Assembly: GCA_964035575.1 (NCBI GenBank)
Contig: OZ037844.1
Span: forward strand, 1,612,001 to 1,676,000
Direction: 5' to 3'
DNA from: Rhynchopus sp. YZ270_cl-10
Taxonomy: Eukaryota
Length of the DNA stretch: 64,000 nt
This document shows, one piece after another, positions 1 to 29,701 of the stretch; position 1 is the stretch's first letter, and every line of letters begins with the position of its first letter. The notes under the pieces are model-generated. The model worked only from the letters and a program-made list of their open reading frames with translations. It was not told where the DNA came from and ran no database searches. The position numbers and the translations under genes were made by a program.

Positions 1-3000
1 TTGAGTGTACGGGGGAGTGGCCGCCTTCTTTGATGAGAGCACTCATTGCGCTCATCCCCAAAGGGGAAGACGACACCCCGCTGAAGCAGCGACCTATCAC
101 GATCACTTCGTGTATCTACAGACTGTGGGCGGCAGCGAGGTTGCGAAGACTGATAAAGTGGCAGGAAAGCTGGATTGGTGAGCAACAGCACGGCTTCAGA
201 GCAGGACACAGCACTGCACACCTGTACTGGCACTTGTCGCTCAAGCTGGAGAAGGCGGTGCTGTCGGGTGACGACACAGACCAGGTATGGGGCTTCACGA
301 TTGACTACGCCAAATGTTTCGATCGTGTGCCTCATGAGATTGTGCTATCGCTGGCGGAGGAGTGGGGCGCGCACTGGCGTATTCTTGGACCACTGAGGGC
401 GGCGTACACTGCCATGGAACGCCGTTTCAAGTTGGGAGACGTAGGTGTGGGAGGCGCTTTCCGTACGACAAATGGTATCCTGCAAGGTTGCCCACTTTCT
501 GTCGTGCTGTTGAACGCGCTGATGGCAGTGTGGGGATCTGCAGTGACGAGAAGGACGGGAGCAATCGCCATGGGGTACGCTGACGACGTGTATGCTGTGG
601 CGAACACGGAAGCGGAGGTGCATGGTGCTGCGAGGGTGACGAAGGAGTTTATCACTGCTGCGGACATGGAGGTCAAGGCAGAGAAGTGCGTAGGGTTTAC
701 CTCGAAGGAGGGAACAAAGACGAAGTTTGGACTTGGCGACGGGTTCTTCCCCGACAAGAAGCAGTTCGGGGCGGTTGGAGCAGACATTTTGGCTGGAAAG
801 GGGAACTTCGGGCCCATCGCGCGTGAGCGTGCGGTTACTGCGCACCGTGTGTTTACGAGGGTTTCGAGTGTGCCATTATCCTTCACTGAGAAGGCACTTA
901 TTGGCGCAAGGGGACCAATGATGGCAGCGTTGCATGGGTGTGAAGTGACAGATTTCTCGAAGCAGACCATCGAGACGTTGAGGCAAGGGGCTGCACTAGC
1001 AGTCTGGGGGCAGGGCAGGAAGCAGCGCACGCTGAACATTGTGTGGCATGTGTTGTCTCCGGTCGGGATTGATGCGCCAGCGGAGATTGTACAGAGGAGG
1101 ATGGCGGCCTTTCTCCGACTGACAGAAGATGACGGCATGCGAAGAGAAGCAGAAGAAGTGTGGAGGCTGGCACATGACCGAAGAGCGGAGCGGGAGGTGA
1201 GGCGGCGTGACAGGGCTTCAGATCTGGCACGTCTCCGGCGTGAGAACCCTGGGGTTGCCAACCCAAGGGTAACTGAAATGCACAAGAAGGGTGTGATAGA
1301 GTTGTTGTGGGACGACCTGGAGCGATACGGATGGCGGTGGAGCAGCTTCGACTTCTGGACCACACACATCGGGTTGAGGGTGCACGTTCGTCTGTGGGAC
1401 AAGGGCAAATGGCTGCATGAGCTGAGAGAGGGCATCCGTGCACACGCGTACCGCCTGACAGTGACGACGAGGCCGTCGATGCAGGGCATTGAGGGAGGTG
1501 TGGATCGCCAGGCGACGAACGCAGTGTGGAAGGACCGCACGACCGACAGATACCTGGCGGGCGCGATACGCGGAGCCTTGTCGGGCTCTCAGTTGGTGGG
1601 GGTGCAGCTGCTGAGGAACAAGGAGGTGGAGACTTCGTTGTGCCGATACTGTGGTGAGGCGATAGAGGACCGGAGACACGCTTGGTGGTGGTGCCCGCAG
1701 TGGGACGAAATTCGTGGAGAGGACATCGGAAAACTCCGGGTTTTGCTCAAAGACGCACCCCCGTGCTTCTTGGACTTTGGCCTGGTGCCGACGATATTCT
1801 TGCAGGAGCTGAGTGTTGCGGAGAGAGAGCAGACGGTGCGTCGTGTGCAACTGATGCTGGTCAGCATCGCGCTGGCAAGGCAGAAGTACGACGTGGAACA
1901 TGGGTTTTCGCAGAAGAAGAAGAAGCAAGCGGTGGTGGGCCAATCCCTTTTTCCTTGGGGCTGGAATCCTCAGGAGGGTGCAGTGCTTGAGAGCTACAAC
2001 CCGCTGGAGAACGTACTGTGGGGGAGCAAGTACATGAAGAAGAGTCCACGCTGGACGGAAGACCACTTCTGGGCGCTGAAGGCATGGCTCGCTGCATTGC
2101 GTTGGCCTGATGGCACAACGCCCCCCATCACGCAGCTCGAGCTCATGCTGGACTTTGAGATCTTCTCGGGGTTGGACGTACCGGGTGAGACGGTGTTGAA
2201 GAGGGCCGAATCTTTTGGTGCCATGATGCGGACGGCGAAAACTATGGCGCATGGAAGGGACGTATGGAAAGGAGTGGAGAAGAGGGAGGTGCACCACTTA
2301 CAGGAACTGGGTGCGGGGATCATGACGGGGTATTCTGTGCGACCTGTGCTGACGCATGCGGCGGGGGTTGAAGGATACCTGAAGGAGTTGCAGGAGAAGG
2401 CGACGTCGCGGAGAGCACTCTCCCGACAAAAGGAAAAGACGAAGGCGAGGTGGGGTGACGACGCGGATGTGGCTCATACTTCCACTCCGGAAGAACGCTC
2501 AGCAAAGAACGAACGCTGGAAGGAAGCGAAGGAAGAGCAGAAGCAGGCAGAGGAGGTGCGTAAGAGAGCTGCGATAGCTGCAGTTGCGGCAGAGCAGATT
2601 CGACGACAGGAGGCACGCAGGCGGCAGACACCGGCTGTGCGTGTGGACGTAAGGAGGAAGGTGGGGGCCATGCGGGTGTGTGACATACACACCAAGATGC
2701 GATGCGGGGACTGCGAGCACAACAACATCTCCATCACGGCGTGTTGTGCGACGCACCATTGTGATGAGCTTATTTTGGGTGACTGTGTGGAGGCGCGTGA
2801 GGCGTGTGAGGTGCATAACTTCTCGATGTGCGGACAGTGTGCGGGTGCGGGGAACGTGTCGATGAAGCAGTGCTGTCAGAAGCACCACAACTGTGTGGCC
2901 CACGGGAGGGGTGCTTGCGGTGCATGTGTGCAGGCGGGACGGAAGAGGAAGAAGGACGGATTGCCGATGCTGGCGTCTCCTCAGGCCTGTTGCGGGAAAG

Positions 3001-3126
3001 GGCACCACGACACGTCCCAGGGGCGTCTCGGGTTTGCCCCGCGATAACGAAGGTGGTCACGTGGCGCCTTTCTCACCTCTCAGTTCATCTGAGAAGGTGG
3101 GGATGGGTCACGTCAACAAGTTTAAG
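1..3126 (+). mobile_element. Non-LTR (LINE-type) retrotransposon, 5' part outside the window, inserted in an LRR gene
   Basis: RT-encoding ORF to 3047, then a 79-nt 3' UTR ending ...GTCAACAAGTTTAAG at 3126, directly followed by LRR coding sequence. The 3' end is defined by identity with the second copy at 10721-11751. Confidence 0.93.
3..3047 (+). CDS. Retrotransposon ORF (partial): reverse transcriptase, CCHC zinc finger, charged helical region, C-terminal Cys/His repeats
   Basis: Non-LTR RT motifs LIPK, QRPIT, QHGFR, IDYAKCFDRV, GILQGCPLS, YADD; CRYC-x8-H-x4-C finger. The frame is open from base 3 (ECTGEWPPSLMR...), so the true start lies upstream. Confidence 0.93.
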   Translation, partial: ECTGEWPPSLMRALIALIPKGEDDTPLKQRPITITSCIYRLWAAARLRRLIKWQESWIGEQQHGFRAGHSTAHLYWHLSLKLEKAVLSGDDTDQVWGFTIDYAKCFDRVPHEIVLSLAEEWGAHWRILGPLRAAYTAMERRFKLGDVGVGGAFRTTNGILQGCPLSVVLLNALMAVWGSAVTRRTGAIAMGYADDVYAVANTEAEVHGAARVTKEFITAADMEVKAEKCVGFTSKEGTKTKFGLGDGFFPDKKQFGAVGADILAGKGNFGPIARERAVTAHRVFTRVSSVPLSFTEKALIGARGPMMAALHGCEVTDFSKQTIETLRQGAALAVWGQGRKQRTLNIVWHVLSPVGIDAPAEIVQRRMAAFLRLTEDDGMRREAEEVWRLAHDRRAEREVRRRDRASDLARLRRENPGVANPRVTEMHKKGVIELLWDDLERYGWRWSSFDFWTTHIGLRVHVRLWDKGKWLHELREGIRAHAYRLTVTTRPSMQGIEGGVDRQATNAVWKDRTTDRYLAGAIRGALSGSQLVGVQLLRNKEVETSLCRYCGEAIEDRRHAWWWCPQWDEIRGEDIGKLRVLLKDAPPCFLDFGLVPTIFLQELSVAEREQTVRRVQLMLVSIALARQKYDVEHGFSQKKKKQAVVGQSLFPWGWNPQEGAVLESYNPLENVLWGSKYMKKSPRWTEDHFWALKAWLAALRWPDGTTPPITQLELMLDFEIFSGLDVPGETVLKRAESFGAMMRTAKTMAHGRDVWKGVEKREVHHLQELGAGIMTGYSVRPVLTHAAGVEGYLKELQEKATSRRALSRQKEKTKARWGDDADVAHTSTPEERSAKNERWKEAKEEQKQAEEVRKRAAIAAVAAEQIRRQEARRRQTPAVRVDVRRKVGAMRVCDIHTKMRCGDCEHNNISITACCATHHCDELILGDCVEAREACEVHNFSMCGQCAGAGNVSMKQCCQKHHNCVAHGRGACGACVQAGRKRKKDGLPMLASPQACCGKGHHDTSQGRLGFAPR

Positions 3127-4856
3127 CTTTAACCACCCTGGATCTGACACCAGTCAACAACGTTACGCAGATTGAGAGTTGCTTTCTTTACGGCTGCAAA
3201 GCTTTAACCACCCTGAATCTGACACCACTCAACAACGTGACATCGATTGGCAGTCACTTTCTTTACGGCTGCACTTTAACCACCGTGGATCTGACGCCAC
3301 TCAACAACGTCACTTCGATTGGCGGTAGCTTTCTTTTCTGCTGCAAAGATTTAACAACCCTGGATCTGACACCACTCAACAACGTTACGCAGATTGAGAG
3401 TTGCTTTCTTTATGGCTGCAAAGGTTTAACCACCCTGGATCTGACACCACTCAACAACGTCACGAAGATTGAGGATGGCTTTCTTTACGACTGCGAAGCT
3501 TTAACGACCCTGGATCTGACACCGCTCAACAACGTGACGTCGATTGGCTGCGACTTTCTTCAGGGCTGCAAAGGTTTAACCACCCTGGATCTGACACCAC
3601 TCAACAACGTCACGAAGATTGAGGATGGCTTTCTTTACGACTGCGAAGCTTTAACGACCCTGGATCTGACACCGCTCAACAACGTGACGTCGATTGGCTG
3701 CGACTTTCTTCAGGGCTGCAAAGGTTTAACCACCCTGGATCTGACACCGCTCAACAAAGTGACGTCGATTCGCAGGAGCTTTCTTTCCGGCTGCGAAGCT
3801 TTAACCACCCTGGATCTGACACCGCTCAACAACTTCACGAAGATTGAGGGTTTGTTTCTTTACCGCTGCCACTCTTTAACCACCCTGGATCTGACACCAC
3901 TCAACAACGTCACGTCGATTGGTGGTAGCTTTCTTTACTGCTGCAACTCTTTAACCACCCTGGATCTGACACCGCTCAACAAGGTCACGTGGATTGGTGG
4001 TGGTGGCTTTCTTGCCGGCTGCAAATCTTTAACAACCCTGGATCTGACACCACTCAACAACGTGACATCGATTGGCAGCAACTTTCTTCACGGCTGCACT
4101 TTAACCACCCTGGATCTGACACCACTCAGCAACGTCACGAAGATTGAGGATTGCTTTCTTTACGGCTGCAAAGCTTTAACCACCCTGGATCTGACACCGC
4201 TCAACAACGTGACGTCGATTGGTAATGCCTTTCTTCACAGCTGCGAAGCTTTATCCACCCTGGATCTGACACCACTCAACAACGTGACGTCGATTGCCGG
4301 TACCTTTCTTTCCCACTGCAAATCTTTAACCACCCTGGATCTGACACCACTCAACAACGTCACGTCGATTGGCAGCGACTTTCTTTCCGGCTGCAAAGGT
4401 TTAACCACCGTGGATCTGACACCACTCAATAAGGTGACGTCGATTGGCAATCAGTTTCTTTCCCGCTGCGAAGTTTTATCCACCCTGGATCTGACACCGC
4501 TCAACAACGTGACGTCGATTGGTGATAGCTTTCTTTGCGGCTGCAAAGATTTAACTACCCTGGATCTGACACCACTCAATAAGGTGACGTCGATTGGCAG
4601 TTACTTTCTCTACGGCTCCGAATCTTTAACCGCCCTGGATCTGACACCATTCAACAGGGTTGAGAAGGTAGGTTCGGAATTTGCTGCTCGCTGCACTTCG
4701 TTGACGAGTATTTACCTTTCCGGCTGCAGCAGTGCTGTAGCCGACAGAGTAAGGAATAGCAATGCACTGAACCAGCGTGTGGTTGAAGAACGTCCGAAAC
4801 GCAGCAGAGACGAATCCCCCGAGCAAGCCCGCAAACGACAGAGACACGCACAATGA
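3127..4856 (+). pseudogene. 3' part of LRR gene 1 (about 21 BspA/LRR_5-like 25-aa repeats, C-terminal basic NLS-like tail), cut off by the retrotransposon
   Basis: Frame open from 3129 to the stop at 4856 with consensus LTTLDLTPLNNVTSIGxxFLxxCxx; ends RPKRSRDESPEQARKRQRHAQ. No ATG start of its own; in-frame stops lie in the element's 3' UTR. Confidence 0.85.
3421..3720 (+). repeat. Exact 150-bp tandem duplication of two LRR units
   Basis: 3421-3570 is identical to 3571-3720. Confidence 0.92.
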
Positions 4857-4989
4857 TGACGTGGTGGTGGGAGGGGATAAAGGGAAGGTCGGGAAGAAGG
4901 TTACGAAGGGAGGTGGGGAAGGGCCGGTAGGTAATGCCTACTCTACGCGCCTCCACAAACTTTTCAAAAAAAAAAAAGATACTAAAACA

Positions 4990-5874
4990 CAGGGAAGTTC
5001 CTAAGTGGGACCGAGAACATGAAATTCTGGATTTTAGTTTTTTTTTCCTTTTTTTTTTTCCTTTTTTCCTTGGGGGGCTTTCTTGTGGTTTCTAGTGGGT
5101 TTCACTGTAGGTGACACACCACCAGTGTGGTGAAATGGTCGAAACTCTCAAAAGCAAGAGTTTTCAGGGGGCAAGAAAAAAAAAATTGACACCAAAATCC
5201 TGCACCATCCAGGGCTGTATCCCCAATTTTTTTTGCCTGCGGCGCCATTTTTCATTTTTTGCTCTGCAAAAAAGGGTTCGTTGGAAGCTAGATTTTTACA
5301 CCGTACCCAAAAATTTTTGCCTGCGGCGCCATTTATATTATTTTTTGCTCCGCAAAAAGAGAAGTGCAACGCCTCACCGTTCATCGGCGGAAGCACTGGT
5401 TCCACGGGTTATCGAACCCCAGAGAGCACTTCATTGGCATGCACGCGGTTACCGCGAGGGAGCGTGTATGCAGGTACAAAATCACTGCCCCATCCAAATA
5501 ATATTCCCAACGTCTTTGGGGGTCCCCTTGCATTTTGCAGCCAAAAATGCAACTAGACCAAAGCTGCAAAAAGTTCCGCGCGAGTGTAGCGCGCCCGGGT
5601 TTGGGACCCCTTTTTGAATTTCGAAGGGCGGTTAAAGTGGGCCCAGAATCACAGTTCTGACACTCATTTAGCATTGTGAGCAACTCACTAGTGGTCGTAA
5701 CCAAAATTTGTATCAATCAAGAACTTGTCCATTTTCTCGAAATGACCCCACTACAGTGAGGGTAGAGCTCGGAAAGCCCGAAAAAGGGCAAAAAACCCCA
5801 CCCAAAAAAAGGAAAAAAACGGGAACATAAATCCAGAATTTTGCTGTTTTTTCCGAGAACAAGGAACAACCCTG
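4990..5874. mobile_element. hAT-like non-autonomous element
   Basis: Termini CAGGGAAGTTCCT / AGGAACAACCCTG; 8-bp TSD CTAAAACA (4982-4989, 5875-5882); absent from the paralogous site at about 12490. Confidence 0.85.
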
Positions 5875-5884
5875 CTAAAACATA

Positions 5885-6407
5885 AACCCCCCTCCCAACT
5901 ATTGTTTACATACAGGTATTGTTTACATATAATTATTCGCAGCTATTATTTACATCCAATTACTATTTACATTCGAATTATTTATTTACACCCCCTTTTT
6001 TTTGCCGGTTTTTGGTGACGGGGTGCGGATTCGTGACCAAAAACACAATTTTTTGGAATTTCCGGAATCTGTCCAGAAAATGGTGGGGTCGATGTTGAAA
6101 ATTGGACAATTTTTTGACCACTTAAATTTTGGAAAATATGAGCCCGGTCACTAGGTGGGGCCCATTTTCGGCCAAAAATTTTCACAAAATCCGAGTTTGT
6201 AAAATTGACCCTACACCCACATCAATTTCAATACTATACCTCACTTCACCTTCGGTTACCCTACAGGGGAGGTGTGGAAAATGTAAACAATACATGAGTG
6301 ACAATTATTTACATGTACTATTTACATTTAAATTATTTACATGTACTATTTACATGCACGAATACTATTTACATAAAAATATGTAAACAATAGCTGTGAG
6401 GGGGGTT
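5885..6407. mobile_element. MITE with TA target duplication
   Basis: 27-bp TIR AACCCCCCTCCCAACTATTGTTTACAT with 2 mismatches, TA on both sides, subterminal TATTTACAT repeats; empty site ACTAAAACA-TA-GGCTTGG in the paralog at about 12495. Confidence 0.85.
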
Positions 6408-7026
6408 TAGGCTTGGAATCCCGCTATGCTATGACAATCCCTGAGCCACATAGGCGTGCCACTGTGGCTAGTCACTGCCCACCTGGTAAATTGCCAGCGC
6501 CCTTGTACCAAAGCAAACGATGATAAGGGCTGTTCTGAACCTGGACAACAGACAGATTTCTGTTGTAAAAGTTGTATTGTTAACCCATCGGAGGGAATGT
6601 GCGTTGCGTTTAGACGAAATCAGTGTCTTTTTTGGGGGGGTTGGGGGCCCGGGTTAGGGGTTTTACCAGCTGGGTTTTGGGGTGTTTCCTCGGCGATGGG
6701 TGGTTGGGTCGGGGAGCCGGGGGGGTTCACTGGGGCTATTGGGGCGAAAAAATGTCACGTTGTTCAGTCACCCAACCGTGCTCTGAAGATTCATTCATTA
6801 AAGAGGGAGAAGTATTTGTGTAAGCAAAGACCAGAAGTGTCACTTCCTTGCTTCCTTCCACGGGAATTCAGAAAAATACAAAATACAGGGATTTGGGGCT
6901 TTTGTTTAAGTAAGAGAAAACCGAATGGAGTGGGAACGCAACGAGCATTTTTCATAATGTTTTATTCTTCCCCCACAAAATATCACGCACAGAGAGAAAC
7001 ACTCGTTTTTTCACACAGCGCATCCG

Positions 7027-8123
7027 CAGTGCTCTCAAGATCCTCCACGTAGGGGAGGATATTTCCTCCAGGGGCTTTTTTTTTTTTTTTTCAGGCTTTT
7101 TTGGTGGAGGATTTCCTCCATTTTTTTTTTTTTTTTGGCGGGCTCGGGTGGAGGATTATCCTCCTAGGGGTTTTATAGTGGGGGGTCACTTTGTCTCCCC
7201 CGAGGGAGCCAATATTTTCCCGAGCCTGTATGCACCGTCCAGGGCTGCACCTTAAAAAATTTTTGCCTGCGGCGCCATTTTCATTTTTTGCTACTCAAAA
7301 AAAGGGTTCGTTGAGTGATTTTGTGGTGTAAAAGGAAGTATTCTTACACCGTACCCTAATTTTTTTTCGCCTGCGGCGCCATTTATATTAATTTTTTTGC
7401 TCCGCAAAAAAATAGAGTTGACAATGTCTTTGGATACCCTTGCATTTTGCATCCAAAAAATACAACTTGACCAAAGCTGCAATTTTTTTGCCGTTTTTTA
7501 AAAATTACCCGCCGTTGCATCAGCCCCTGCTTCTGGAAGACGTATTGGTTTTGTACGGTTCGTGGAGCGTCGGTGCAAGAGAAAGGATTAGATTTCCGTT
7601 TTTTATTATCTCGCAAAATTGACCCGCCTCTCCGCTCTGTGGCTGTCAGGGAGGCGCGCGCGAAGCGCGCGACGACCGCTTGTTGCGGGGGGAAAAATTT
7701 TTTTTTGGGGATTTTTTCAGTGTATTTTTTGGGCCGGTTGGGGGGGGTCAGTGACCCCCCCCAAATTTTCTCCGGAAATTTGGGCCGGTGGGGGGGTCAG
7801 TTTTTTCAGATGGGTTTGAGGTGTTTCCTCGGCGTGGTGTAAAAAGCTATACATTTACACCGTACCCAAAAAATTTTTCGCCTGCGGCGCCATGTATAAT
7901 ATTATTGTTTTTTTTTGCTCCGCAAAAAAAAATATACAGTTCACTATGTGCCCAATGTCTTCCCTGGTCGTGCTAAAAAAAAAAAATTGGGCAAAAAAAC
8001 AAACTGACCCCCCCCAAACTTAAAATCTGGATTCCTGGATAAGACACTGGATTTTTTTGCAAAAATAAAATCCTCCTCATTTCGAAAATTCTGCTTTTTT
8101 CGTGGAGGATCTTGAGAGCCCTG
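7027..8123. mobile_element. hAT-like non-autonomous element with internal repeat fragments
   Basis: 23-bp TIR CAGTGCTCTCAAGATCCTCCACG (1 mismatch), 8-bp TSD CGCATCCG (7019-7026, 8124-8131); empty site in the paralog at about 13140. Confidence 0.88.
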
Positions 8124-9475
8124 CGCATCCGTTGTTTGTTTTTTTTCAACGACACGTTTTTTCACAATTCCCCGGTATCACATATGGTACTGTCTTTCCA
8201 TGGATACACATGAAAAGGAGTTCTGTGCTATTCACAGACCTCGATAGGCGATTGAGCTTATCTAACAACAACCAAAACAAAGAAAGTACAAAGAAGAGAA
8301 TCAAAAATGCAGGAAAAATAGACAAAGAGAAAAACAAAGAGATTTTTGACAATAAAATTCTCCTTTTTTGGTGTTACCGTGCACCTGTCGAGGACATGTC
8401 AAGGACATGTCAAGGACATGTCAAGGGCCTGTCAATATAGGGGGGGTGTGTCTTTTATAATTTGGTTTACAGTGGGTTTTTTTCCCACTGTACGGGCTGT
8501 ACTGTGTACTGTGTACTTCAGATAGTTTTTGGACACACATGTGACCCCACTGTGGAGAGCAATCGGCTCGCGCAATCAAAAGAAAGCAGAGAAAAGGGGA
8601 AAGAAAAAAGCCGAGTCACTTACTTCGCACAAGGATTTGCTCCCTTGTGTTCCAATTATACCCGTTTCGCAACGAACCAAAAAAAAAAGCCCGCCCCCGG
8701 TTTCATGAAGTGCGCAATATGGGGTTTTCAGGAGGAGCACCAAAAATATTATTGTTGTCTTTTATCCACGCATCTCTGTGGATGTCTCACCTTTTGTGTT
8801 CCGGCCGGAATCTGACCTCATGACCCTGTGTCTGCAAAGATGCTGTTCATTTGATTGATGAGAGGAAGCGGAGGGTGGAGAGGGTGGAGAGGTTGGAGGG
8901 CATATCAGATGCAGACCTCGCATTGGGGTGCATACACAGCACAGTCCTTGCGGCAATATTCGTTTCGTCTCCCTCAGGTCTCCCAGATCAGCGGCGCAGG
9001 GATTAGCTCCACGTAGCCTCACCCACGGGGAAGAGGACCCCAGCCAGAACACTGTAAGAACTGCAGCACAACGCCAATCACGATGTTTTCGAGCATTTGT
9101 TCAGGGTTGAAACCACTGCTAAATGGGGTATTTCTTGTCCTCCACACCACCACCACACACAGAGCTCAGAACACAAAACCACAACAAACGAATGGACGTG
9201 CACTTCGAGGATTTCAAAGCGACTCAGCACACAGTCGAGGTGGGTGAAGATGACACGGCGGAGGACTTGCGGCGGAAGGTGGCGCGTCTGCAGTGGGGTT
9301 GCCTGCAGACAGCTTTTGCATGAGTTTCGGAGTCGAAGCGATGGGCGAAGGATACGACATGACTCAGCTAAGTGCTGGTGACACAATCGTGCTGAAGAAG
9401 TCGATGAAGTACGAAGCCCTTGCAGCGCTTCATGCGTTGGGTGAGACAGACCTGACGGCCGAGAGGTTGAAGAAG

Positions 9476-10078
9476 CCCGACGGCGGACCGCCCCCCATAG
9501 CACATTTTTGCGGTGCACGGGCGTCCGGGATTAGTATCTTTTTTTGAGAGAACCCAAGAGCGGCCAGGTCCTCGACAAGTACGTTGTGCTTTTAGACCTA
9601 CAAACTGTCTGGGGTGGTGGGACCTCGGGGCGAAGGGTGCTTCCCGGGACCCCAATATCCTACCACAAGGAGCTCGAGTCGTGCATGGAAAGCAGGGTAC
9701 TCTGAGCCGATTACTTCCACAACTCCCAGATCCCAAGACCTCCACGGGGGGCAGGCCTCCACGGAAACCCGCGACCGCCGACACCTTAGCTCCGTACTGC
9801 CTCTGTCTGTAACCTGCCGGTCCCCCACCTACCTACGCTTTTTGTGGTGTCTTTTTACGACGGTGGACCAAGGGGCTTTGCAGTGCAGTCAACGCCGACG
9901 GAGCGAGACTCGATTGTGACCGGGTGAAAAGGGAACCTTAGCCAGCGCTAACCAGCGGCAGTTTTGACTCAGGGAGGAGTTTCTCACCGCAGACTGGCGA
10001 CACACCCCCCACTTTTTCGGGGTGGCTGCATTCCTCTTCGGAACGGGGTGTTCCATCCTATTTTTAAAAACGTTTATT
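9476..10078 (+). mobile_element. 603-bp non-coding insertion (SINE-like retroposon)
   Basis: Flanked by a perfect 19-bp TSD GGCCGAGAGGTTGAAGAAG (9457-9475, 10079-10097); no TIRs; AT-rich right end. Orientation is inferred. Confidence 0.8.
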
Positions 10079-10720
10079 GGCCGAGAGGTTGAAGAAGGTG
10101 ACGAATCCTGAGGTGGCGTGTTTGTTTCTGCAGGCGGGGGTTGCGACTGTCATTCCTGATGGGTTCTTGACGAAGGCATCCTTAACGCGACTTGATCTGA
10201 GTGCTGTGTCCTTTGTGACACAGATTGGAGACAAGTTTCTTTCGGAATGCACCTCGTTAGCACGTATTGACCTCTCTGGGTTGAGCAATGTGACGCGGAT
10301 TGGCAGTCACTTTCTTTACGGCTGCAGAGCTTTAGCAACCCTGGATCTGACACCACTCAACAACGTGACGTCGATTGGTCGTAACTTTCTTTTCTGCTGC
10401 AAATCTTTAACAACCCTGAATCTGACACCACTCAACAACGTCACGAAGATTGAGAATGGCTTTCTTTACGCCTGCGAAGCTTTAACCACCCTGAATCTGA
10501 CACCGCTCAACAAGGTTACGTCGATTGGTGATGCCTTTCTTCACAGCTGCGAAGCTTTAACCACCCTGGATCTGACACTGCTCAACAACGTGACGTCGAT
10601 TGGCAGTAGCTTCCTTCACGGCTGCGAAGCTTTAACCACCCTGGATCTGACACTGCTCAACAACTTCACGAAAATTGAGGGTTTGTTTCTTTACGGCTGC
10701 AACTCTTTAACCACCCTGGA

Positions 10721-11751
10721 ATTGCGTTGGCCTGATGGCACAACGCCCCCCATCACGCAGCTCGAGCTCATGCTGGACTTTGAGATCTTCTCGGGGTTGG
10801 ACGTACCGGGTGAGACGGTGTTGAAGAGGGCCGAATCTTTTGGTGCCATGATGCGGACGGCGAAAACTATGGCGCATGGAAGGGACGTGTGGAAAGGAGT
10901 GGAGAAGAGGGAGGTGCACCACTTACAGGAACTGGGTGCGGGGATCATGACGGGGTATTCTGTGCGACCTGTGCTGACGCATGCGGCGGGGGTTGAAGGA
11001 TACCTGAAGGAGTTGCAGGAGAAGGCGACGTCGCGGAGAGCACTCTCCCGACAAAAGGAAAAGACGAAGGCGAGGTGGGGTGACGACGCGGATGTGGCTC
11101 ATACTTCCACTCCGGAAGAACGCTCAGCAAAGAACGAACGCTGGAAGGAAGCGAAGGAAGAGCAGAAGCAGGCAGAGGAGGTGCGTAGTAGAGCTGCGAT
11201 AGCTGCAGTTGCGGCAGAGCAGATTCGACGACAGGAGGCACGCAGGCGGCAGACACCGGCTGTGCGTGTGGACGTAAGGAGGAAGGTGGGGGCCATGCGG
11301 GTGTGTGACATACACACCAAGATGCGATGCGGGGACTGCGAGCACAACAACATCTCCATCACGGCGTGTTGTGCGACGCACCATTGTGATGAGCTTATTT
11401 TGGGTGACTGTGTGGAGGCGCGTGAGGCGTGTGAGGTGCATAACTTCTCGATGTGCGGACAGTGTGCGGGTGCGGGGAACGTGTCGATGAAGCAGTGCTG
11501 TCAGAAGCACCACAACTGTGTGGCCCACGGGAGGGGTGCTTGCGGTGCATGTGTGCAGGCGGGACGGAAGAGGAAGAAGGACGGATTGCCGATGCTGGCG
11601 TCTCCTCAGGCCTGTTGCGGGAAAGGGCACCACGACACGTCCCAGGGGCGTCTCGGGTTTGCCCCGCGATAACGAAGGTGGTCACGTGGCGCCTTTCTCA
11701 CCTCTCAGTTCATCTGAGAAGGTGGGGATGGGTCACGTCAACAAGTTTAAG
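10721..11751 (+). mobile_element. 5'-truncated copy of the non-LTR retrotransposon
   Basis: 1031 bp matching 2096-3126 with only a few substitutions seen; 18-bp TSD CTCTTTAACCACCCTGGA (10703-10720, 11752-11769). Confidence 0.96.
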
Positions 11752-12134
11752 CTCTTTAACCACCCTGGATCTGACACCACTCAACAACGTGACGTCGATT
11801 AATGGTGGCTTTCTTTACTGCTGCAAATCTTTAACCACCCTGGATCTGACACCACTCAACAAGGTCACGCGGATTGATGGTTCTGGCTTTCTTGCCGACT
11901 GCAAATCTTTAACAACCCTGGATCTGACACCACTCAACAACGTGACATCGATTGGCAGTAACTTTCTTTACGGCTGCAGAGCTTTAACCACCCTGGATCT
12001 GACACCACTCAGCAACGTCACGAAGATTGAGGATCGCTTTCTTTACGCCTGCGAAGCTTTAACTACCCTGAATCTGACACCGCTCAACAACGTGACGTCG
12101 ATTGGTGATAGCTTTCTTTCCGGCTGCAGAGCTT

Positions 12135-13390
12135 TAACCACCCTGGATCTGACACCGCTCAACAGGGTTGAGAAGGTAGGTTCGGAATTTGCTGCTCGCT
12201 GCACTTCGTTGACGAGTATTTACCTTTCCGGCTGCAGCAGTGCTGTAGCCGACAGAGTAAGGAATAGTATTGCACTGCGCCAGCGTGTGGTTGAAGAACG
12301 TCCGAAACGCAGCAGAGACGAATCCCCCGAGCAAGCCCGCAAACGACAGAGACACGCACAATGATGACGTGGTGGTGGGAGGGGATAAAGGGAAGGTCGG
12401 GAAGAAGGTTACGAAGGGAGGTGGGGAAGGGCCGGTAGGTAATGCCTACTACGCGCCTCCACAAACTTTTCAAAAAAAAAAAGATACTAAAACATAGGCT
12501 TGGAATCCCGCTATGCTATGACAATCCCTGAGCCACATAGGCGTGCCACTGTGGCTAGTCACTGCCCACCTGGTAAATTGCCAGCGCCCTTGTACCAAAG
12601 CAAACAATGATAAGGGCTGTTCTGAACCTGGACAACAGACAGATTTCTGTTGTAAAAGTTGTATTGTTAACCCATCAGAGGGAACGTGCGTTGCGTTTAG
12701 ACGAAATCAGTGTCTTTTTTGGGGGGGTTGGGGGCCCGGGTTAGGGGTTTTACCAGCTGGGTTTTGGGGTGTTTCCTCGGCGATGGTGGTTGGGTCGGGG
12801 AGCCGGGGGGTAGGGAGTGGGACCATTGGGGCGAAAAAATGTTACGTTGTTCAGTCACCCAACCGTGCTCTGAAGATTCATTCATTAAAGAGGGAGAAAT
12901 ATTTGTGTAAGCAAAGACCAGAAGTGACACTTCCTAGCTTCCTCCCACGGGAATTCAGAAAAATACAAAATACAGGGATTTGGGGCTTTTGTTTAAGTAA
13001 GAGAAAACCGAATGGAGTGGGAACGTAGTGAGAGTGCAGCGGAAACGATAGTGGGAACGCAACGAGCTTTTTTCATAATGTTTTATTCTTCCCCCACAAA
13101 ATATCACGCACAGAGAGAAATACTCGTTTTTTCACACAGTGCATCCGTTGTTTGTTTTTTTTTCAACGACACCTTTTTTCAAAAAATTTCCCCGGTATCA
13201 CATATGGTACTGTCTTTCCATGGATACACATGAAAAGGAGCTCCGTGCTATTCACAGACCTCGATAATGGCGATTGAGCTTATCTAACAACAACCAAAAC
13301 AAAAGAAAGTACAAAGAAGAGAATCAAAAATGCAGGAAAAATAGACAAAGAGAAAAACAAAGAGATTTTTGACAATAAAATTCTCCTTTT
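12135..13390 (+). repeat. Segmental duplication of the LRR C-terminus and downstream DNA
   Basis: Matches about 4627-4989, 6408-7026 and 8124-8370 once the three MITEs are removed from the first copy. Confidence 0.9.
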
Positions 13391-13458
13391 TTTTTTACTT
13401 TAATTTCTCCTCCAACCCCTCTTCCCCAGCCTCTCTTCCCCAACCTCTCTTCCCCAGG
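13381..13458 (+). promoter_or_regulatory. Polypyrimidine tract plus AG, putative trans-splice acceptor
   Basis: Long C/T tract ending CTCTCTTCCCCAG about 15 nt before the ATG at 13473; similar pyrimidine-rich tracts precede other genes. Confidence 0.45.
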
Positions 13459-13472
13459 GAACATATTACAAA

Positions 13473-15137
13473 ATGAGAATTTTTGCTGGTGTTATTGCGT
13501 TGACACACACTCTTGCTGTGTGTGTCGCGGACGACAGTTTTACAGTGCTTCACGACGTCACACCGGCCGCAGGGTGGACGGACGTAGGTGTGTTCGACAC
13601 TACTGCCACAAGCGAGTCTACCGAAGGCTCGACCTTTGATGTTCTGGTGGGTCTGCGCAGGAAGAACGTCGCTGAGGTGAAGCGCATTGTGGACACCGCA
13701 TCTAACCCGACCTCCTCTGAGTACCTTGCGTACGCAGGGTACGCCGAGATGGCTGCGCTGGTGGCTCCAGGACAGCACGCCGTGCAGGCAACACTCGCAT
13801 GGCTGCACGCCGCAGGCATAACAGCAACCATAGTGCACCCCCACCAGGACTACATCCACTGCCACGCCGTGACCCCGTCGACGCTCCTCAAGGCAACAGG
13901 GGAGACGTCACCATTTCGTCGTTTCCGCCACACCGATGGACGCGAGGTCGTTCGCATGGCCTCTGTCTCCATCCCTACCAACCTAGTTGACATCATCGAG
14001 ACCTTTACCGGCTTTTCAGGATTTCCGGTTGCAGAGAAAACTACCAAAAAGAAGGTGTCTTTGGGACGCGGGAAGGTGAACCCCACTGTCTTGCGGCAGA
14101 CGTACAGCATTGCGGGGGGAGCTGCATCCGGTGCGATCCAAGCGATGGCGCAGTTTCAGGGGCAGAATGTTCATGACTCTGACCTGGCTAGGTTCTGTAC
14201 TGACTACAACAACGGAACCGACTGCAAAATCTCCAAATACATCGGCGACAACAACGAGACCGGCGTGGCAGGGTCTGAATCGATGCTCGACTCCGAATAC
14301 CTCATGTCAATTGGCGGCGCTGCAGAGACGTGGGTCTACAGTGTGCAGTCCATGGACTTCTGCGGCGACCTCATGACCTTTGCCTCGAACGTTACCTCTG
14401 AGTCCACCTTCCCTCACGTCATCTCCATCAGCTACGGTGTTCAGGTCAAAAACCCATGCGGTACAGACATCGGCAACCGCTTCACTGAAGACATCATGAA
14501 GATGGCGGCCATGGGGATCACCGTCGTGGTGGCCTCTGGAGACCAAGGATCTGGCTGGCAGATCGACGATGCACAGAACGGCGGCACTCTGGTCCCCTGC
14601 TTTCCCTCTACGATTGAATACTGTGTCTCTGTGGGGGCGACCTTCTGGATCTCCGGGACTACCGGGGAGGAGGAGGCGACACGCAGCTTTGGATCTGGTG
14701 GTGGGTTTAGCTACGACTACCCAGCTCCGGACTATCAGAAGGCGACCATCGATGGGTATCTTGCGAGCACCACGATCCCGCCCTGCAAATACAACACAAC
14801 AGGGCGTGGCACCCCCGATGTCGCGATGCTTGGCGAATCGTACACCATCATTGAGCAGAATGTGACGGCAGTGGTGGCCGGGACCTCTGCCAGTACTCCT
14901 GCATTTGCCGGTATCGTAACGCTTCTCAACTCTGTATGCGGGAAGCCCCTAGGTCATATCAACCCACTCCTCTATAAGAACCCGCAAATGTTCACTGACA
15001 TCACTGTCGGGTCTAACGCACCAGAGCTCCTGAAGAAGAATGGTTGGAAGGCTGAAAAAGGATGGGATGCAGTGACCGGGTTGGGCACCCCAGCGTTTAA
15101 TATCATGGCTGAGGTGGTGGCGGCAGCGTGTAAGTAG
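13473..15137 (+). CDS. Peptidase S53 (sedolisin / tripeptidyl-peptidase I-like), secreted or lysosomal
   Basis: Signal peptide, pro-domain, E-x3-D (ESMLD), VISISYG, ASGDQG, SGGGFS, GRGTPDV, catalytic GTSAS, C-terminal GWDAVTGLGTP. Confidence 0.95.
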   Translation: MRIFAGVIALTHTLAVCVADDSFTVLHDVTPAAGWTDVGVFDTTATSESTEGSTFDVLVGLRRKNVAEVKRIVDTASNPTSSEYLAYAGYAEMAALVAPGQHAVQATLAWLHAAGITATIVHPHQDYIHCHAVTPSTLLKATGETSPFRRFRHTDGREVVRMASVSIPTNLVDIIETFTGFSGFPVAEKTTKKKVSLGRGKVNPTVLRQTYSIAGGAASGAIQAMAQFQGQNVHDSDLARFCTDYNNGTDCKISKYIGDNNETGVAGSESMLDSEYLMSIGGAAETWVYSVQSMDFCGDLMTFASNVTSESTFPHVISISYGVQVKNPCGTDIGNRFTEDIMKMAAMGITVVVASGDQGSGWQIDDAQNGGTLVPCFPSTIEYCVSVGATFWISGTTGEEEATRSFGSGGGFSYDYPAPDYQKATIDGYLASTTIPPCKYNTTGRGTPDVAMLGESYTIIEQNVTAVVAGTSASTPAFAGIVTLLNSVCGKPLGHINPLLYKNPQMFTDITVGSNAPELLKKNGWKAEKGWDAVTGLGTPAFNIMAEVVAAACK

Positions 15138-17683: not shown

Positions 17684-18944
17684 GGGTTGAGGGTGGGGTT
17701 TAAAAGAAAACGTAAAAGAAGGGGGAAAGGGTAGATTTCTCGCACCTTAGAAATTACCTAACCCTCTAACGAACACATGATTTCAATACAAAACAAAAAA
17801 ACAAATATTTTTGCAGATCTGCTTGATGGCCGATTTTTTTCTTTACTTTTTTCGAATCGTACTATAACCTCGAAAGCGTAGGATGCACCTTTACGCGCAT
17901 CCCACACTTTCGTATTCCGTGTTTTTTATTTTTTCTCTCCAGATTTTTCCCCCCCCCCACCGCACCCTTGCCTTCATACGGTGGCAACGTTCGCTCCTTT
18001 TGTACCCCCTCCTGTGGTGCCAACCCTCTCTCCCCTCTGGGCACCTCTCCTTCTCTACAACGTTTCCCCGTGCACACCTGTTCAGTGTGCAATTATCCCC
18101 CTTACACAAAGTGCGATGAATCTCGGAAGAACGAAAAAGACCAGTCGATATCGAGGTTGCACATTCCAAATTCTAAATGGGGGTTGGTTTAATGGGTGAT
18201 TGGGAATGCTGTGAAGAAGAAGAATGTTGCTTTCTTCTGCAGAACCTGACAAATCCTTCAGAGTATGCCTTCCTGCACTCTATGGTGCTGCCCACACTCT
18301 AACCTGTTCACATTTTGTGTATTTACGTGAGGCATGTTCATCTCTCAAGTTTTCTTCTTTTGTTCAAGTTCCCGTGTCTTAGTGGGGAGGGATGCAATAT
18401 CAAGCAAATGGGTGACAACATCATCCCGAACAACTGTCTATGTGACGAAGAGACTACTACCCATCTTCAGCGCCTCCCAGCGTGTCTCTAGTGCGATAAC
18501 GATGTCGGTAAAGGATGTGTGTCGAAGAGGTGCACCCATATGAACAAGTTCTCTTCTTATGTTCAAGTGACTCAGCACGAGAGGCTTCGGCTCATTTTAT
18601 AAACTTTTCTTTGTTTTTATTCGGGGTGTTACACCCACCCTTCACCGTTTTTGGGGGTTTTTTGGTCTCTTGGAATGATGCGATCAACAAACAACAGACG
18701 AACAAAAAAAAATATGAAAGACAACAAAAAAAAAACGCTGCAGGAACAGGGCCCAGCTGATCTTGTATTTTAACTCCTCCACCACCACCACCACCCCCTC
18801 TTTCCCCCTATCAACCCTTTCTCCCCCCTACCACAGGATTTCACCTCCTACCCACACACCCTACGTTGCACCCTCCACCCCTCCAGTTGTGAGTTGCGTG
18901 CTCCGCTCAAACGAACCCATCAACGCACCTGCGAAGCCCAGAGC

Positions 18945-21900
18945 ATGAGCATGAGCACAGTCTCCATGCGTTTCTCTGCACTGTTGTACGGGTTGAGTGC
19001 ACTGTTCATAGGTGACGTGGACGCACAGGACCCACGAATCTACTTCGACCGCTACACACCGCCCACCGGAGGCCCGCTGTCGGGAGTGATAGCTCGGTCA
19101 GACCACTATACCTTTCTGGGTTCGAAGGATGTGCTGACACAGATCCAACAGGACTACACCACCCGCAAGGTGAACTACGTCGCCAGCGGCTCCTTCCCGG
19201 GGGTGGACCACTGGGTGCTGAACGAGGCTGCTGGGGGATCAGACAGGGTCATCGCGTTGATGACGACTGCGTCTGGTGTGCAGTGGGGAAGCATCGGTGC
19301 GCAGTCCCCGGTCGCGGATTTTAGCGGGTCGATTTACACAATCGCTGGGACGGCAAACCTGATGTGTCATACAACAGTGCAAGACGCCGACTCGCCAGAC
19401 ATCTTGTACTTCTGCTGCCAGAAGGCGGTGCTCTATATTGCGAATCTCGCAGACGGCACAGTGTCGGAGCACGCACTCCCATCAAAGTGTGTCGACATCT
19501 CCGAGAACAACAGTGCCGACCAGCTGTACGTTGCGACGAAGAAGGACGGTATCCTGCTCTTCGATCTGCAGCCCGGGTCGATGTCTGTGTCGGAGGTGGT
19601 CGGGCAGCGCATAGCGCTAGACGGCGTGACGCACATGATGTACAGCAACTCGCAGTCGTTGATTATCACGTACGCAGAAGCCACCTCGGGGACAGGCATG
19701 TCCGTGCAGACGTTCAGAGAGTCGAACCACGCAGCCCTGCACGAGAAGGCAGAGTCAACCACCAACCGTGTTGTGGCGCTCAACAGGTTCGGGCGTGCGT
19801 ACCTGTACGAGCAGGACACATACGATGTGTACGTCTGGTTTGGCACGACGTCCTCGTTGACAAACCAAGGCTCGCTTGCCGGTGGTGTGTGGACGCTTGG
19901 TGAGCAAGGCCCCATGGAGGAGATCTGGCTCGACAACTCGATTCTCTTCTTCGTGTCTGCCACCACGCTCACGCTCTACAATGAGGCCACGTTCACGCCG
20001 ACACCGTTGCCGGTGACACCTGCACCACCAACTCCATCGCCACCAACACCAGCTCCGCCAACTCCTTCCCCACCGACACCTTCACCGCCCACCCCGTCAC
20101 CACCAACGCCAGCGCCACCAACTCCATCACCGCCAACACCGTCGCCACCCACTCCGTCGCCACCAACACCAGCACCACCAACTCCTTCCCCACCGACACC
20201 TTCACCGCCCACTCCTTCTCCACCGACGCCATCACCACCTACACCAGCACCGCCAACTCCTTCACCACCCACTCCATCGCCACCAACTCCTTCACCGCCC
20301 ACCCCGTCGCCACCGACACCGGCTCCACCAACTCCTTCTCCACCTACTCCGTCACCACCGACACCTTCACCGCCAACACCAGCGCCACCCACTCCGTCGC
20401 CACCAACACCCGCACCACCGACACCAGCACCACCCACTCCTTCACCACCCACTCCGTCGCCACCGACACCTTCTCCACCGACACCAGCACCACCTACGCC
20501 GGCACCACTAACACCTTCACCGCCCACCCCGTCGCCACCGACACCGGCGCCACTAACTCCTTCACCACCTACGCCAGTACCACCCACTCCATCACCGCCA
20601 ACACCATCTCCACCGACACCATCACCACCTACACCAGCACCGCCAACACCGTCACCACCAACACCTTCCCCTCCCACTCCATCACCACCAACTCCTGCGC
20701 CATTGACATCGGCACCCGCTACACCATCTCCGCCAACATCTTCCCCACCTACGCCAGCGCCACCAACTGTGGCGCCAATGACACCTGCACCACTCACACT
20801 GTCACCGGTAACACTTTCGCCACCGACACTGTCGCCGCAAACAACTTCACCACCAACGCCTTCCCCACCCACTCCGTCGCCGCCAACACCATCACCACCT
20901 ACACCATCACCGCCAACTCCGGCACCTGCAACACCTTCCCCACCCACTTCATCACCACCTACACCATCGCCGCTAACACCTTCTCCACCTACTCCTTCAC
21001 CACCCACACCTGCACCACTAACACCGTCCCCACCCACTCCGTCTCCTCCAACACCTTCGCCGCGGACTCCTGCACCACAGACACCATCACCAGTCACACC
21101 TGCACCTGCGACACCATCACCGCCAACACCAGCACCACAGACACCTTCGCCGCCCACTTCATCACCGCTGACGCCTTCACCACTTACCCCGTCACCTCTA
21201 ACACCTGAGCCCACTGCACTCCCCCGCACTCCCCCGCCCACGACACAGGACGCCACAGGACAGCCTCGCACAGCCACACCTACTTTGCCACCCACCGAAG
21301 CACCACTCACGAACCTCACGGACATCGCACCGGCACCGACAACAGCCGTCACCACGACCACCACGGTTGCCGAGGGCGCAGCTGTGGCAGGCCTGGCGAC
21401 TGCGGTGATGGGTGGCGCGACGGCACCTTACGCTGTGATGCTGTCGGTGACAGGCGCTGACTGTGTTTTGGGCGAGAGCCTTGAGATGCGCGGGTACTCG
21501 ATCTTTCTGCATCCTACACAGTGGCGTCTGTTCGGGTCTGCTGCTGTCGGCGTGGTGCTGGGGAACTTCATGGTCGTCTGCGCAGTCGCAGTGACGATGT
21601 CGCTTGTGGTCCGTGCACTGTCCGTCACGAAAGCCTTTGCACACATGGACACCCTTGGGCTCTGCAGGTTCCCTTCTGCGCCGCTCTTCGTCTTCCAGTT
21701 CCTTCTCCTGGGCACAGCCATGGCGTCGATGTCGCTGCTCTTCTACCCGCCTTCCGCTTCTGCTGCGGTGCTTGGCGCAGTCTCGCTTGCCGTCTGCATT
21801 CTTGTCCCCATTGCTCTCGTCTTTGAAGTGCGTTGCTCTGTACCAAGCAAAGGCTTCTACAAGAAGGATGCTGCCACCGAAGACAGGCAGTACCTGACAG

Positions 21901-22772
21901 CGATGATCGGCCCCGGGGAGTGGGTCAGCCAGAACACCAGGACCCGCTGGTCGCTTCGGTACGCTTCGGTGGTGCGTCCGTACCGACAGGAGTGGGCGTG
22001 CTATGTGTTTGTGGAGATGGCGGCAACGCTCACCATCGCTGCAGTGAGCGGTGCCACAGCGGAGAGCATGGTGGGGTGTGGACATAAGAAGCTGTGCGAT
22101 GGGCTGATCTTTCTTGTTCTCCTCACAGCCACCTGCCTCACACAGCCCTACGCACGGACACGCGACCTGGTTGCCTTCGTCAGTCTCTTCGCTACACAGG
22201 CCATTGCGATGCTCCTTATGGCCTCAGGGTACTACTTCTCCAAGCCACACCACGCTGTTTTCTCCATCGCGGAAACCATTTTGTACGTCTCGAACGCAAT
22301 CCTTCTGGCAAAGGTGATTGCAGACATATGCTCGGAGGGGTATGTGTTCTGTACAAAACGGCGTCATCGGTTGATGATGGAGACGGAGGCGGAACACGCA
22401 GACACAAAGGAACTGCTTACGTCCTGCTCGAGTGATGACGCTGATACAACACAAAGAGAGAAACGAACCTTGGACACCTCGGTGTACGGACCCCCGTCTG
22501 TGGTGCTCACCCCCTTATCGTTGAGCGGGAGCAGAGGTGGAGGTGGAGGTGGTGGTGGCTCTGTCCGGCATGACAGCAACGTCGACACAACCCAGTTTCT
22601 CTCCTCAAGACGTGGCAGGCGTGGTGGTGTTGTGCCTATAGGGGGTCGTGAGAAGTCTTTCTCTGATGCAAGCTCCTCAATGCGTTCGGTGCAAGGTGGT
22701 GGCGGTGGTGGTGGTGGTGGTAGTGGAGCCCCAGGGCAGCTGCCCCCATCTACCTTAAGGGTAGTGTGTTGA
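18945..22772 (+). CDS. Stalked multi-pass surface protein A (signal peptide, head domain, PTPSP stalk, 7-TM; bodonin/DGF-1-like)
   Basis: First ATG 18945 (alternatives 18951, 18966); shared motifs [41 protein letters not shown]; seven hydrophobic segments after HPTQW. Family name is from recall. Confidence 0.85.
20016..21230 (+). repeat. Coding 15-bp repeat, (PTP[S/A]P)n stalk
   Basis: Degenerate pentapeptide repeat in the translation. Confidence 0.9.
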
Positions 22773-28332: not shown

Positions 28333-29701
28333 GTTTTTTGTGATAGACAAAAAGTTCCTCCACAATATTCCTGGAAAATATGCGGAGGGCATGCTGAGTA
28401 CAGCCGTTGCGAAAGTGTGCAGTAGAGGGAGAGGGGAGTAACCATTTTTTATTTCATCTTTCATGCAATGTGTTACACCCTCTCAAATGCGTTCTGTTCT
28501 TGAATTGAAAGCACGTAACTCTCATTCTCTTTTCGAATACGGTTTTTTTTTTTTTTGTAGAAGTGTTCACTCAACTTCAATCTTTCCTCCCCCCACTCCG
28601 TGTTGAAAATGGTACCCCTCCCCTTTTGACTCTTATTTGCTTTTGTCACATGACGGTGAAGTAAATGTGATTTATTTGTGTGGTTTTCACCGTTGGCTTA
28701 CAACGGTGAAAACCACCAACGGAAACACAAGCCAAGTCATTGATTGTTCACTGTCGTGCAAAGCTATAAAGATCCCCCAGAGGGGTTTCCTTAGTGTGTC
28801 CTCTATGCATACCCCCGAAGGTGAATACGTATTCGCTCTATATTCGGATCCCAAAATTCTTGGCCCTATATTCAAATCCGAATATAGGGCGAACATAGAA
28901 AACAGGCGACTATGATATTTCACCTTCGGAGCACATCTAGGGCGAAGCGCGTTCAACATGTTAACCTCTCCACAAAACCCCTACTTCCGCGATTTTTACC
29001 CCCCTCCCCCCTTTTGTTTAGAATTAACCGTGTCACTTAGAAGTCCACAAAAAGTGTACGTGTTTTGGCCTCGGCCTCAGAGTTGGATGAGTTTTTTTAC
29101 TATCTTGTTTTTTGGCGCAAAGTGATGCACCTTTCTTTGTTCGGGAAAAAAAAATGGTTTTTCGAGGCACTCAAAAGAACTCTGTAATAAAACAGAGAAC
29201 CAGAAGTGACAGGAAATCATACCCGAAAAAAAAAAAAAAATGAAATGAGAATGCATGCCTTGGCAAGGAATACAAAGAGATATTGAAGGAACCGATCCTA
29301 TCTAAAAAAGAAATGCAAAAAGGGAACCATAGTGATACCACACTGCAGTACAACCTACAGATACATCACCACAAAAAAAGCGTAGTTTTTTCCACACAAA
29401 ATCACATTCAAAACCCCCTCTCCCTCTCCCACTCTCTTCTGTGCTAGGAGTCACTGAAGCCACCAAATCGAGCAGTTTTTCCATATTTGTCGGCTCTCGC
29501 TGTAGTGGCTTGCTCGTCCAGATACCTTCTTGTCACTGACTAATAATGCGGTGTTGGTCTTCTCTTCCTCTTGTCTTCTTTTGTTTCCTCTTCCCCGTTT
29601 ACGGGTTTACGTCTTAGATGGAGGGTGCAAATGCACTGATGAACATGAACAAACCTTACAGACACCTCCCCTCCCCTCTCCGCCCCCTCACGTCCTCCCT
29701 G

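Follow-up and report, generated by a model that had tools for sequence, protein, structure and literature searches.

A non-long-terminal-repeat retrotransposon with an insertion hot spot at one register of a leucine-rich repeat coding unit in Rhynchopus sp. YZ270_cl-10

We analysed a 64,000-nucleotide stretch of the Rhynchopus sp. YZ270_cl-10 genome (contig OZ037844.1, positions 1,612,001 to 1,676,000; hereafter the window), in which two copies of one retrotransposon interrupt two paralogous genes for leucine-rich repeat (LRR) proteins. The element is a retrotransposon that lacks long terminal repeats (non-LTR), with a single open reading frame (ORF) and an apurinic/apyrimidinic endonuclease (APE), and one register of the LRR coding repeat is a real and well-supported hot spot for its insertion, with off-target copies besides. 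We consider it probable that a young element of this type has many times and independently entered the 75-bp unit at one position, and other, unrelated sites as well, likely by nicking a degenerate preferred sequence that the LRR unit matches best and most often. The domain layout, target-site duplications of 16–18 bp, 5' truncation, the one shared register and the non-LRR sites were observed directly. The two copies and their host genes are located in the window as follows.

1..3126, + strand: retrotransposon copy 1, the 3' 3.1 kb, with its 5' end upstream of the window; 98% identical to the full-length protein match P0001
10721..11751, + strand: retrotransposon copy 2, 5'-truncated, 1031 bp, delimited by alignment to copy 1
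10703..10720, + strand: left target-site duplication of copy 2, 18 bp
11752..11769, + strand: right target-site duplication of copy 2, 18 bp
3815..3946, + strand: empty paralogous site of the copy-2 insertion, in gene 1
3127..4856, + strand: 3' part of LRR gene 1, which copy 1 interrupts; roughly 20 units of 75 bp followed by a basic tail at the C-terminus
9192..12364, + strand: LRR gene 2, with a ubiquitin-like N-terminus and BspA-type LRRs; disrupted at three points, namely a frameshift near 9290, the 603-bp insert and copy 2 (paralog P0099)

Copy 2 is identical to positions 2096–3126 of copy 1 at 1028 of 1031 bases, without gaps. Both copies lie on the + strand, sense to their host LRR genes, and their 3' joins (3126/3127 and 11751/11752), neither of which shows poly(A), are 2 nt apart in the register of the unit. 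The duplication flanking copy 2 is exact and can be extended on neither side; since the window contains its 18-mer at only two further places, 3872 and 3947, it represents a rarer unit variant rather than an automatic product of the tandem array, and we rejected such an artefact for this reason. The 75 nt on the left and right of copy 2 have their best gene 1 matches at 3815 and 3872 (71/75 each), and because both flanks match one uninterrupted unit of gene 1, the paralogous site is empty. The original prediction, which had described two near-identical copies in the same orientation in different LRR paralogs, joined within 2 nt of one point, a truncated copy 2 with its own 18-bp duplication and an empty matching unit in gene 1, was thereby verified in each of these points. 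Twenty of 30 other units read AG at the two positions that precede the copy-1 join, and the element itself ends in AAG, so that a single nick position can account for the two joins, copy 1 having a microhomology of 2 nt. Given that both copies lie in arrays, the same strand and a phase within 2 nt would be met by chance in about 3% of cases; by themselves, the two copies of the window are weak evidence of targeting, and the support comes from outside it.

The tandem arrays have a period of 75 (20.5 copies at 3124–4656; 5.8 and 5.4 copies flanking copy 2) and encode BspA-type LRRs (PF13306). Two protein searches (120 of 2494 and 120 of 364 matches listed) yielded 190 distinct LRR proteins, among which at least 145 are members of the family by motif, with 229 strict and 575 loose units and a common layout in which a ubiquitin-like N-terminus precedes a few LRRs and the C-terminal tail is basic. 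Assuming that they stem from one assembly, these proteins lie on 33 contigs that can be told apart by size and sum to 31 Mb; the family is large yet occupies a tiny fraction of the genome. The insertions interrupt the reading frames and inactivate LRR genes, as had been proposed. The frameshift in the ubiquitin-like part of gene 2 (about 9285–9295) may be a true lesion or a long-read error.

Among the public sequencing runs listed, 11 of 14 contain the stretch, six of these at least half of its words; RNA runs do not appear among those listed as containing it, which carries no information on expression. We aligned contigs of runs X1, X2, X4 and X5 (two studies, which may include the source of the window) to positions 3072–3146, a query of 55 nt of element and 20 nt of LRR motif for which 32 of 102 pieces were listed. 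At least nine distinct 3' junction forms lead into the LRR motif: the copy-1 form (X1, X5), the copy-2 form with an added CT (X2, X5), forms with an added C (X1, X4, X5), T (X2), CG (X4, X5) or 7 nt (X1, X5), two with three other letters and one with two gaps. Six of them differ at the first bases past the element end and are therefore not producible by recombination further downstream. In the CG form of X5, the LRR pattern is lost after about 19 nt, and this form may represent a motif-like site outside an intact array. The ratio of the summed depth at 3138–3143 to that at 3072–3077 was 0.255, 0.246, 0.223 and 0.296 in the four runs, a crude estimate by which about 22–30% of the 3'-end depth reaches the motif.

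Further junctions of this register come from annotated proteins. P0264, encoded on a 491,577-bp contig, starts with the last 22 codons of the element in an alternative frame (95%, E 6e-11) and continues past the element end into an LRR unit unlike either flank in the window, a third register form. On the 5' side, P0098, P0113 and P0134 break after TTL-E into one shared foreign tail, and the tail that P0119 enters after ATL-G can be read from the DNA of that tail in a different frame (a fit at 12 of 12 codons, which 0 of 5000 shuffles reach). All four break in the phase in which the copy-2 duplication ends, and they are probably 5' junctions in the same register, with a foreign tail that is likely the element's own 5' end. 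P0098 and P0264 lie on contigs of equal size and both read K-ALTTL at the break, where they may carry the two halves of one 18-bp duplication. The foreign tail has no match in the window, and tblastn returned no 3' chimeras among the 120 of 2494 LRR matches listed, a set in which the 5' tails are present. With 229–3000 units in at least 31 Mb, the chance of hitting the register is 0.002–0.05% per insertion, and the enrichment is at least about 250-fold even at a share of 12% and 3000 units. The insertions are also independent, in agreement with the original prediction: truncation points, junction forms and flanking units vary, and the paralogous site is empty.

The element is likewise found in unrelated sequence. 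At positions 3117–3128, 13 rows show at least eight distinct non-LRR 3' flanks (17 of 21 rows listed), to which run X3 adds a ninth, and there are at least eight distinct 5'-truncation flanks, none of them LRR (20 of 65 rows listed). At one non-LRR site in X2, the same 16 letters stand at the 5' loose end (2979) and at the 3' loose end (3125), which is a true target-site duplication outside the LRRs. At least nine non-LRR 3' flanks, one of them with a 16-bp duplication of its own, show that the element is not LRR-exclusive; the listing of flanks favours long unique ones and is thereby biased to non-LRR sites. The proposed targeting to the LRR unit therefore holds in that one register has been hit repeatedly and far above chance, but not in the sense of exclusivity. 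Under strict site specificity, nearly all copies would sit at one target, whereas only about a quarter of the 3'-end depth reaches the motif (a figure in which the youngest subfamily is not counted separately). The pattern is that of the hot spot in the RHS genes of trypanosomes, with repeated independent insertion at one position of a multigene family and use of other sites; the hot spot is strong and is not an R2-like lock. Two of six clear non-LRR flanks, read by eye, carry an ACCAC-like 5-mer of the unit at the same offset from the join, and one has TGCA upstream, as in the unit; such a degenerate motif is suggestive only and was noticed post hoc.

Several points weigh against this reading. 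The depth shares are assembled-contig depths and not copy numbers, a hand accounting of X1 permits a share as low as about 12%, and contigs across junctions may have been missed, in either direction, where they overlap the element only briefly or connect two repeats. The assignment of the foreign tail to the 5' end of the element is likely but unproven. The degenerate motif was read from a few flanks, of which four of six misfit, and nicking set by the endonuclease is a deduction from sequence. Finally, many non-LRR 3' flanks belong to copies with 2–5 differences in the last 45–57 nt, which may come from an older subfamily with another preference.

This last point leads to an alternative that we regard as unlikely, in which the active lineage is essentially specific to the LRR unit and the non-LRR copies either survive from an older subfamily of lower specificity or are short passengers. 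It would account for the divergence of most listed non-LRR pieces at the 3' end, for the location of seven of the eight non-LRR 5' truncation points (among the rows listed) within the last 171 nt and for the identity of most LRR-joined pieces to the element end in the window. The long or full-length copies that can be placed (copy 1 and probably the four 5'-junction genes) also lie in LRRs, although the protein search could find LRR ones only. Against it stand the low share of 3'-end depth that reaches the motif, the depth of the window-type 3' end that LRR junctions do not cover and one non-LRR truncation at 960, which marks a copy more than 2 kb long.

The following features define the element in copy 1.

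3..3047, + strand: open ORF of 1014 aa with reverse transcriptase (RT), CCHC knuckle and conserved C-terminal domains; APE upstream of the window
54..707, + strand: RT domain PF00078 (E 1.3e-22)
1641..1694, + strand: zinc knuckle CX2CX8HX4C (P0001 residue 1121)
1950..2432, + strand: conserved 161-aa domain; confident structure model, weak fold matches
2679..3005, + strand: three repeats of the type C-x2-H-x4-C-x2-C...CC-x2-HH, likely zinc-binding, common to Diplonema relatives
3048..3126, + strand: 3' untranslated region (UTR), 79 nt, with a long stem-loop predicted by folding against shuffles

The best protein match, P0001 (1588 aa, 98% identical, in a cluster of 33 sequences), supplies the missing N-terminus and carries an APE domain (PF03372 at 28–227, E 3.2e-9) and the RT (PF00078 at 592–809) in one ORF; the endonuclease type, which the original prediction had left to be recovered from upstream, could thus be read from this full-length relative. 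APE and RT in one ORF, target-site duplication and 5' truncation with an intact 3' end characterize the APE-type non-LTR elements, and the best solved-structure relatives of P0001 are L1 ORF2p and R2. A domain scan of P0001 found no RNase H, and the element protein contains no C2H2 finger of the pattern CX2CX12HX3-5H. For a second, restriction-like nuclease after the CCHC knuckle, as in Dualen, there was no Pfam match and no clear fold match, although the listings do not exclude one. The RT is followed by the CX2CX8HX4C knuckle, the 161-aa domain and the three Cys/His repeats, whose motif is carried by 19 of 90 proteins scanned. The model of the 161-aa domain (pLDDT 87) has as its best structural match one with Z 4.6, rmsd 3.3 and 78 aligned (VIA), and the C-terminal fold gave no Foldseek match at E 0.001 or better, nor any by sequence or in Atlas. 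Many of the top fold rows are chains that we take to be winged-helix, and for this domain a winged-helix reading is a weak lead only. The predicted 3' UTR hairpin has a z of -4.85, with 0 of 200 shuffles folding as well, and an Rfam scan of window positions 2900–13500 gave no meaningful match.

Among 89 protein matches, the closest named relatives are long interspersed element (LINE)-like ORFs of Diplonema papillatum (about 29% over the full query), those of dinoflagellates being more distant, and a second subfamily is represented by P0002 (59% identical). A quick RT tree of 83 of the 89 matches, built from search matches alone and so naming no clade, places the element in a weakly supported group with D. 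papillatum rows. These relationships point to a likely diplonemid-like host, in contrast to the trypanosome hosts of ingi. An ankyrin fusion in D. papillatum P0030 was not used as a case of insertion into a repeat protein; its break lies past the knuckle, in the middle of the element, and the fusion has the look of a spliced gene model. A scan of JGI metagenomes gave no matches to the DNA pattern and two to the protein pattern, neither of them confirmed.

Three observations concern the individual copies. Copy 1 shows many differences from the contigs of all four runs at window positions 100–1300 and hardly any further 3', which suggests a recombinant between subfamilies. Copy 2 is in frame with the upstream LRRs, and the resulting 534-aa open frame (window 10068–11672) joins LRRs to the C-terminal domains of the element; its expression is doubtful, as gene 2 is broken further upstream. 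Some junction forms place ATGs from the 3' end of the element (window 3104–3126, P0264) in the frame of the LRRs that follow, where translation of a truncated LRR protein could restart.

A single nick located two bases upstream of the copy-1 join accounts for most LRR junction forms, and that join itself follows from AG microhomology at the common nick; the T form and P0264 fall within 1 nt of this register, and one form lies 7 nt upstream. Such a mechanism would be ordinary target-primed reverse transcription with a sequence-preferring endonuclease. In our preferred reading, the bottom strand would be nicked at the third base of the codon that follows the unit's cysteine codon, reverse transcription would start from the element's own 3' end, at times with 1–2 nt of microhomology, and the second nick would fall about 18 nt downstream, inside the LD codons. 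The APE domain would confer specificity, perhaps together with the winged-helix-like and Cys/His domains at the C-terminus; the hairpin of the 3' UTR may serve as the recognition signal of the RT. The LRR unit, present many times per gene, would offer the endonuclease a repeated target, and the at least about 145 paralogs would buffer the loss of interrupted genes. The same target-primed logic has been described for ingi (PMC3820030). A pairing of the tail letters AAG-UUUAA deep into the target was rejected, as the 6-nt deletion that it predicts is not among the indels listed.

In a second alternative, RNA–DNA homology would place the insertions: LRR flank read through onto the element RNA would pair with nicked units, and one early insertion would seed more. 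Junctions without poly(A), copies in sense to the host gene and the resemblance of the last letters of the tail to the unit are compatible with this idea, and precedents exist in R1Bm, which requires downstream target sequence, and in SART1Bm, which uses target-like 3' letters (PMC7265360). We nevertheless find it very unlikely, since the forms vary at the first bases past the element end, which points to priming at the element's own end, the copy-2 duplication reproduces its own rarer unit variant exactly and shows no donor flank carried along, and the fixed 5' register needs a second nick placed by sequence. Hardly credible, and already largely refuted, is the view that there was no targeting and that one or two insertions, placed by chance, spread through tandem duplication and gene conversion and were tolerated in a dispensable family: the family is clustered on few contigs, three of the four 5'-junction genes lie on contigs of one size (2,160,207 bp) and gene 2 is a multiply broken pseudogene, but truncation points differ, there are at least nine junction forms and an empty paralogous site, the units upstream of the 5' breaks share only 25–30 of 49 residues, and near-identical copies inside diverged genes mean that the insertions postdate the duplications.

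Compared with known systems, preferential insertion by nicking of the LRR unit most resembles the behaviour of trypanosome elements. The original prediction had named R2, CRE, SLACS and CZAR among known site-specific elements; the present one is not of their kind, as these clades, together with NeSL and Utopia, have a restriction-like endonuclease in place of the APE that is present here. A protein-coding multicopy target, which had been inferred, is indeed found, but it has precedents in Euglenozoa, namely ingi/RIME in RHS and TcTREZO in MASP (PMC7563717, PMC5814959). Insertions of ingi/RIME at the RHS hot spot make pseudogenes of members of a protein-coding family (PMC7563717), and ingi shows relative site specificity with 12-bp duplications (PMC5814959, PMC3820030). 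Like ingi/RIME and L1Tc/NARTc, the present element is an APE-type single-ORF euglenozoan LINE, and in those elements the relative specificity is ascribed to the endonuclease (PMC7563717, PMC3820030, PMC5814959); with ingi/RIME it also shares a hot spot whose position within a protein-coding multigene family is fixed and where insertion makes pseudogenes of members. Unlike in RHS, the site lies in a tandem coding repeat, with many sites per gene, and unlike in ingi, the duplications are 18 and 16 bp long instead of 12 bp (PMC3820030), RNase H, C2H2 fingers and poly(A) are absent and a CCHC knuckle and three Cys/His repeats are present. The element thus works like ingi at RHS but lacks all ingi hallmarks compared (duplication size, RNase H, C2H2, poly(A)).

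TcTREZO of Trypanosoma cruzi, which sits in MASP pseudogenes and is described as a composite built from genomic sequences, is likewise a site-specific retroelement found mostly in a protein-coding multigene family (PMC5814959); the present element differs in being autonomous and encoding APE and RT. With R1 and Tx1 it shares the APE endonuclease and a multicopy target as a survival strategy (PMC4640811, PMC7265360), a likeness of features rather than a clade placement. Utopia offers a parallel in its graded strength of specificity, with weakly specific families, but has a restriction-like nuclease (PMC4640811, PMC7265360). The targets listed for these groups are rRNA genes, spliced-leader exons, tRNA and snRNA genes, transposons, microsatellites and telomeres (PMC4640811, PMC7265360). 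The D. papillatum LINE-like ORFs (P0015, P0020, P0031 and others) resemble the element in the APE–RT–CCHC layout, the Cys/His repeats and their broad RT-tree group, at about 29% identity; according to the authors of that genome, rigorous identification of transposable elements is still to come (PMC10161547), and the excerpts of PMC10161547, PMC12278014 and PMC5753468 contain no insertion-site analysis for this LINE group. Our literature search found no LINE targeted to an LRR unit, a weak negative as subscription journals are mostly outside its coverage. New here are the site in a tandem coding repeat, the failure of the ingi hallmarks compared and a second, apparently unrelated insert with its own fixed site in the family.

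9476..10078, + strand: second insert, apparently unrelated, 603 bp; 19-nt direct repeat at 9457–9475 and 10079–10097

In gene 2, this insert separates the ubiquitin-like part from the LRRs at their linker. P0268, on a different contig, carries the 3' end of the insert joined to the same linker codon, with an offset of at most 1 nt. The insert has no significant similarity to the RT matches and no Rfam match. Its 19-nt repeat contains AG|GT, so that the insert could in principle be spliced as a GT-AG intron. P0235, P0240, P0244 and P0258 (and P0238) have, in place of their own N-terminus, a common foreign peptide that leads up to the motif LTKT-x-KYE; this is possibly a third fixed insertion site or one duplicated event. 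With few cases each, the LRR family may be a landing pad for several elements.

Elsewhere in the window, we noted a transposase-like ORF, presumably of Tc1/mariner type, as well as two kinds of protein-coding genes.

43791..45234: 354-aa transposase-like ORF (44057–45121) between 65-nt inverted arms
18774..22772, 29618..32731, 33348..36893 and 47341..51612: four paralogous large membrane proteins with long Pro/Thr-rich repeats
13404..15137: sedolisin-type S53/S8 peptidase with a pro-kumamolisin domain

A bolder proposal, which we put forward tentatively and hold to be doubtful, is that the active lineage is a dedicated LRR-unit-specific retrotransposon of an unclassified protist LINE group whose specificity evolved on its own. 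As its target would be the repeat unit of a coding tandem array, each nick could trigger recombination and turn over LRR arrays, and the same ubiquitin-like/LRR family would serve two or more unrelated mobile elements as a fixed landing pad, with a separate codon for each.

The sequence-specific LINE targets that have been reviewed are mostly non-coding multicopy DNA, and the protein-coding cases that we found in print are the RHS and MASP genes of trypanosomes. With preferential insertion into the LRR unit, the safe-haven idea comes to include the repeat unit of a coding array, here for a LINE group that is different and unclassified. In conclusion, the copies are young and nearly identical, the register is defined and both on- and off-target sites occur naturally, which makes this a tractable system for the gain of APE specificity, and one that allows asking whether nicking by transposons drives the birth and death of LRR repertoires in protists.

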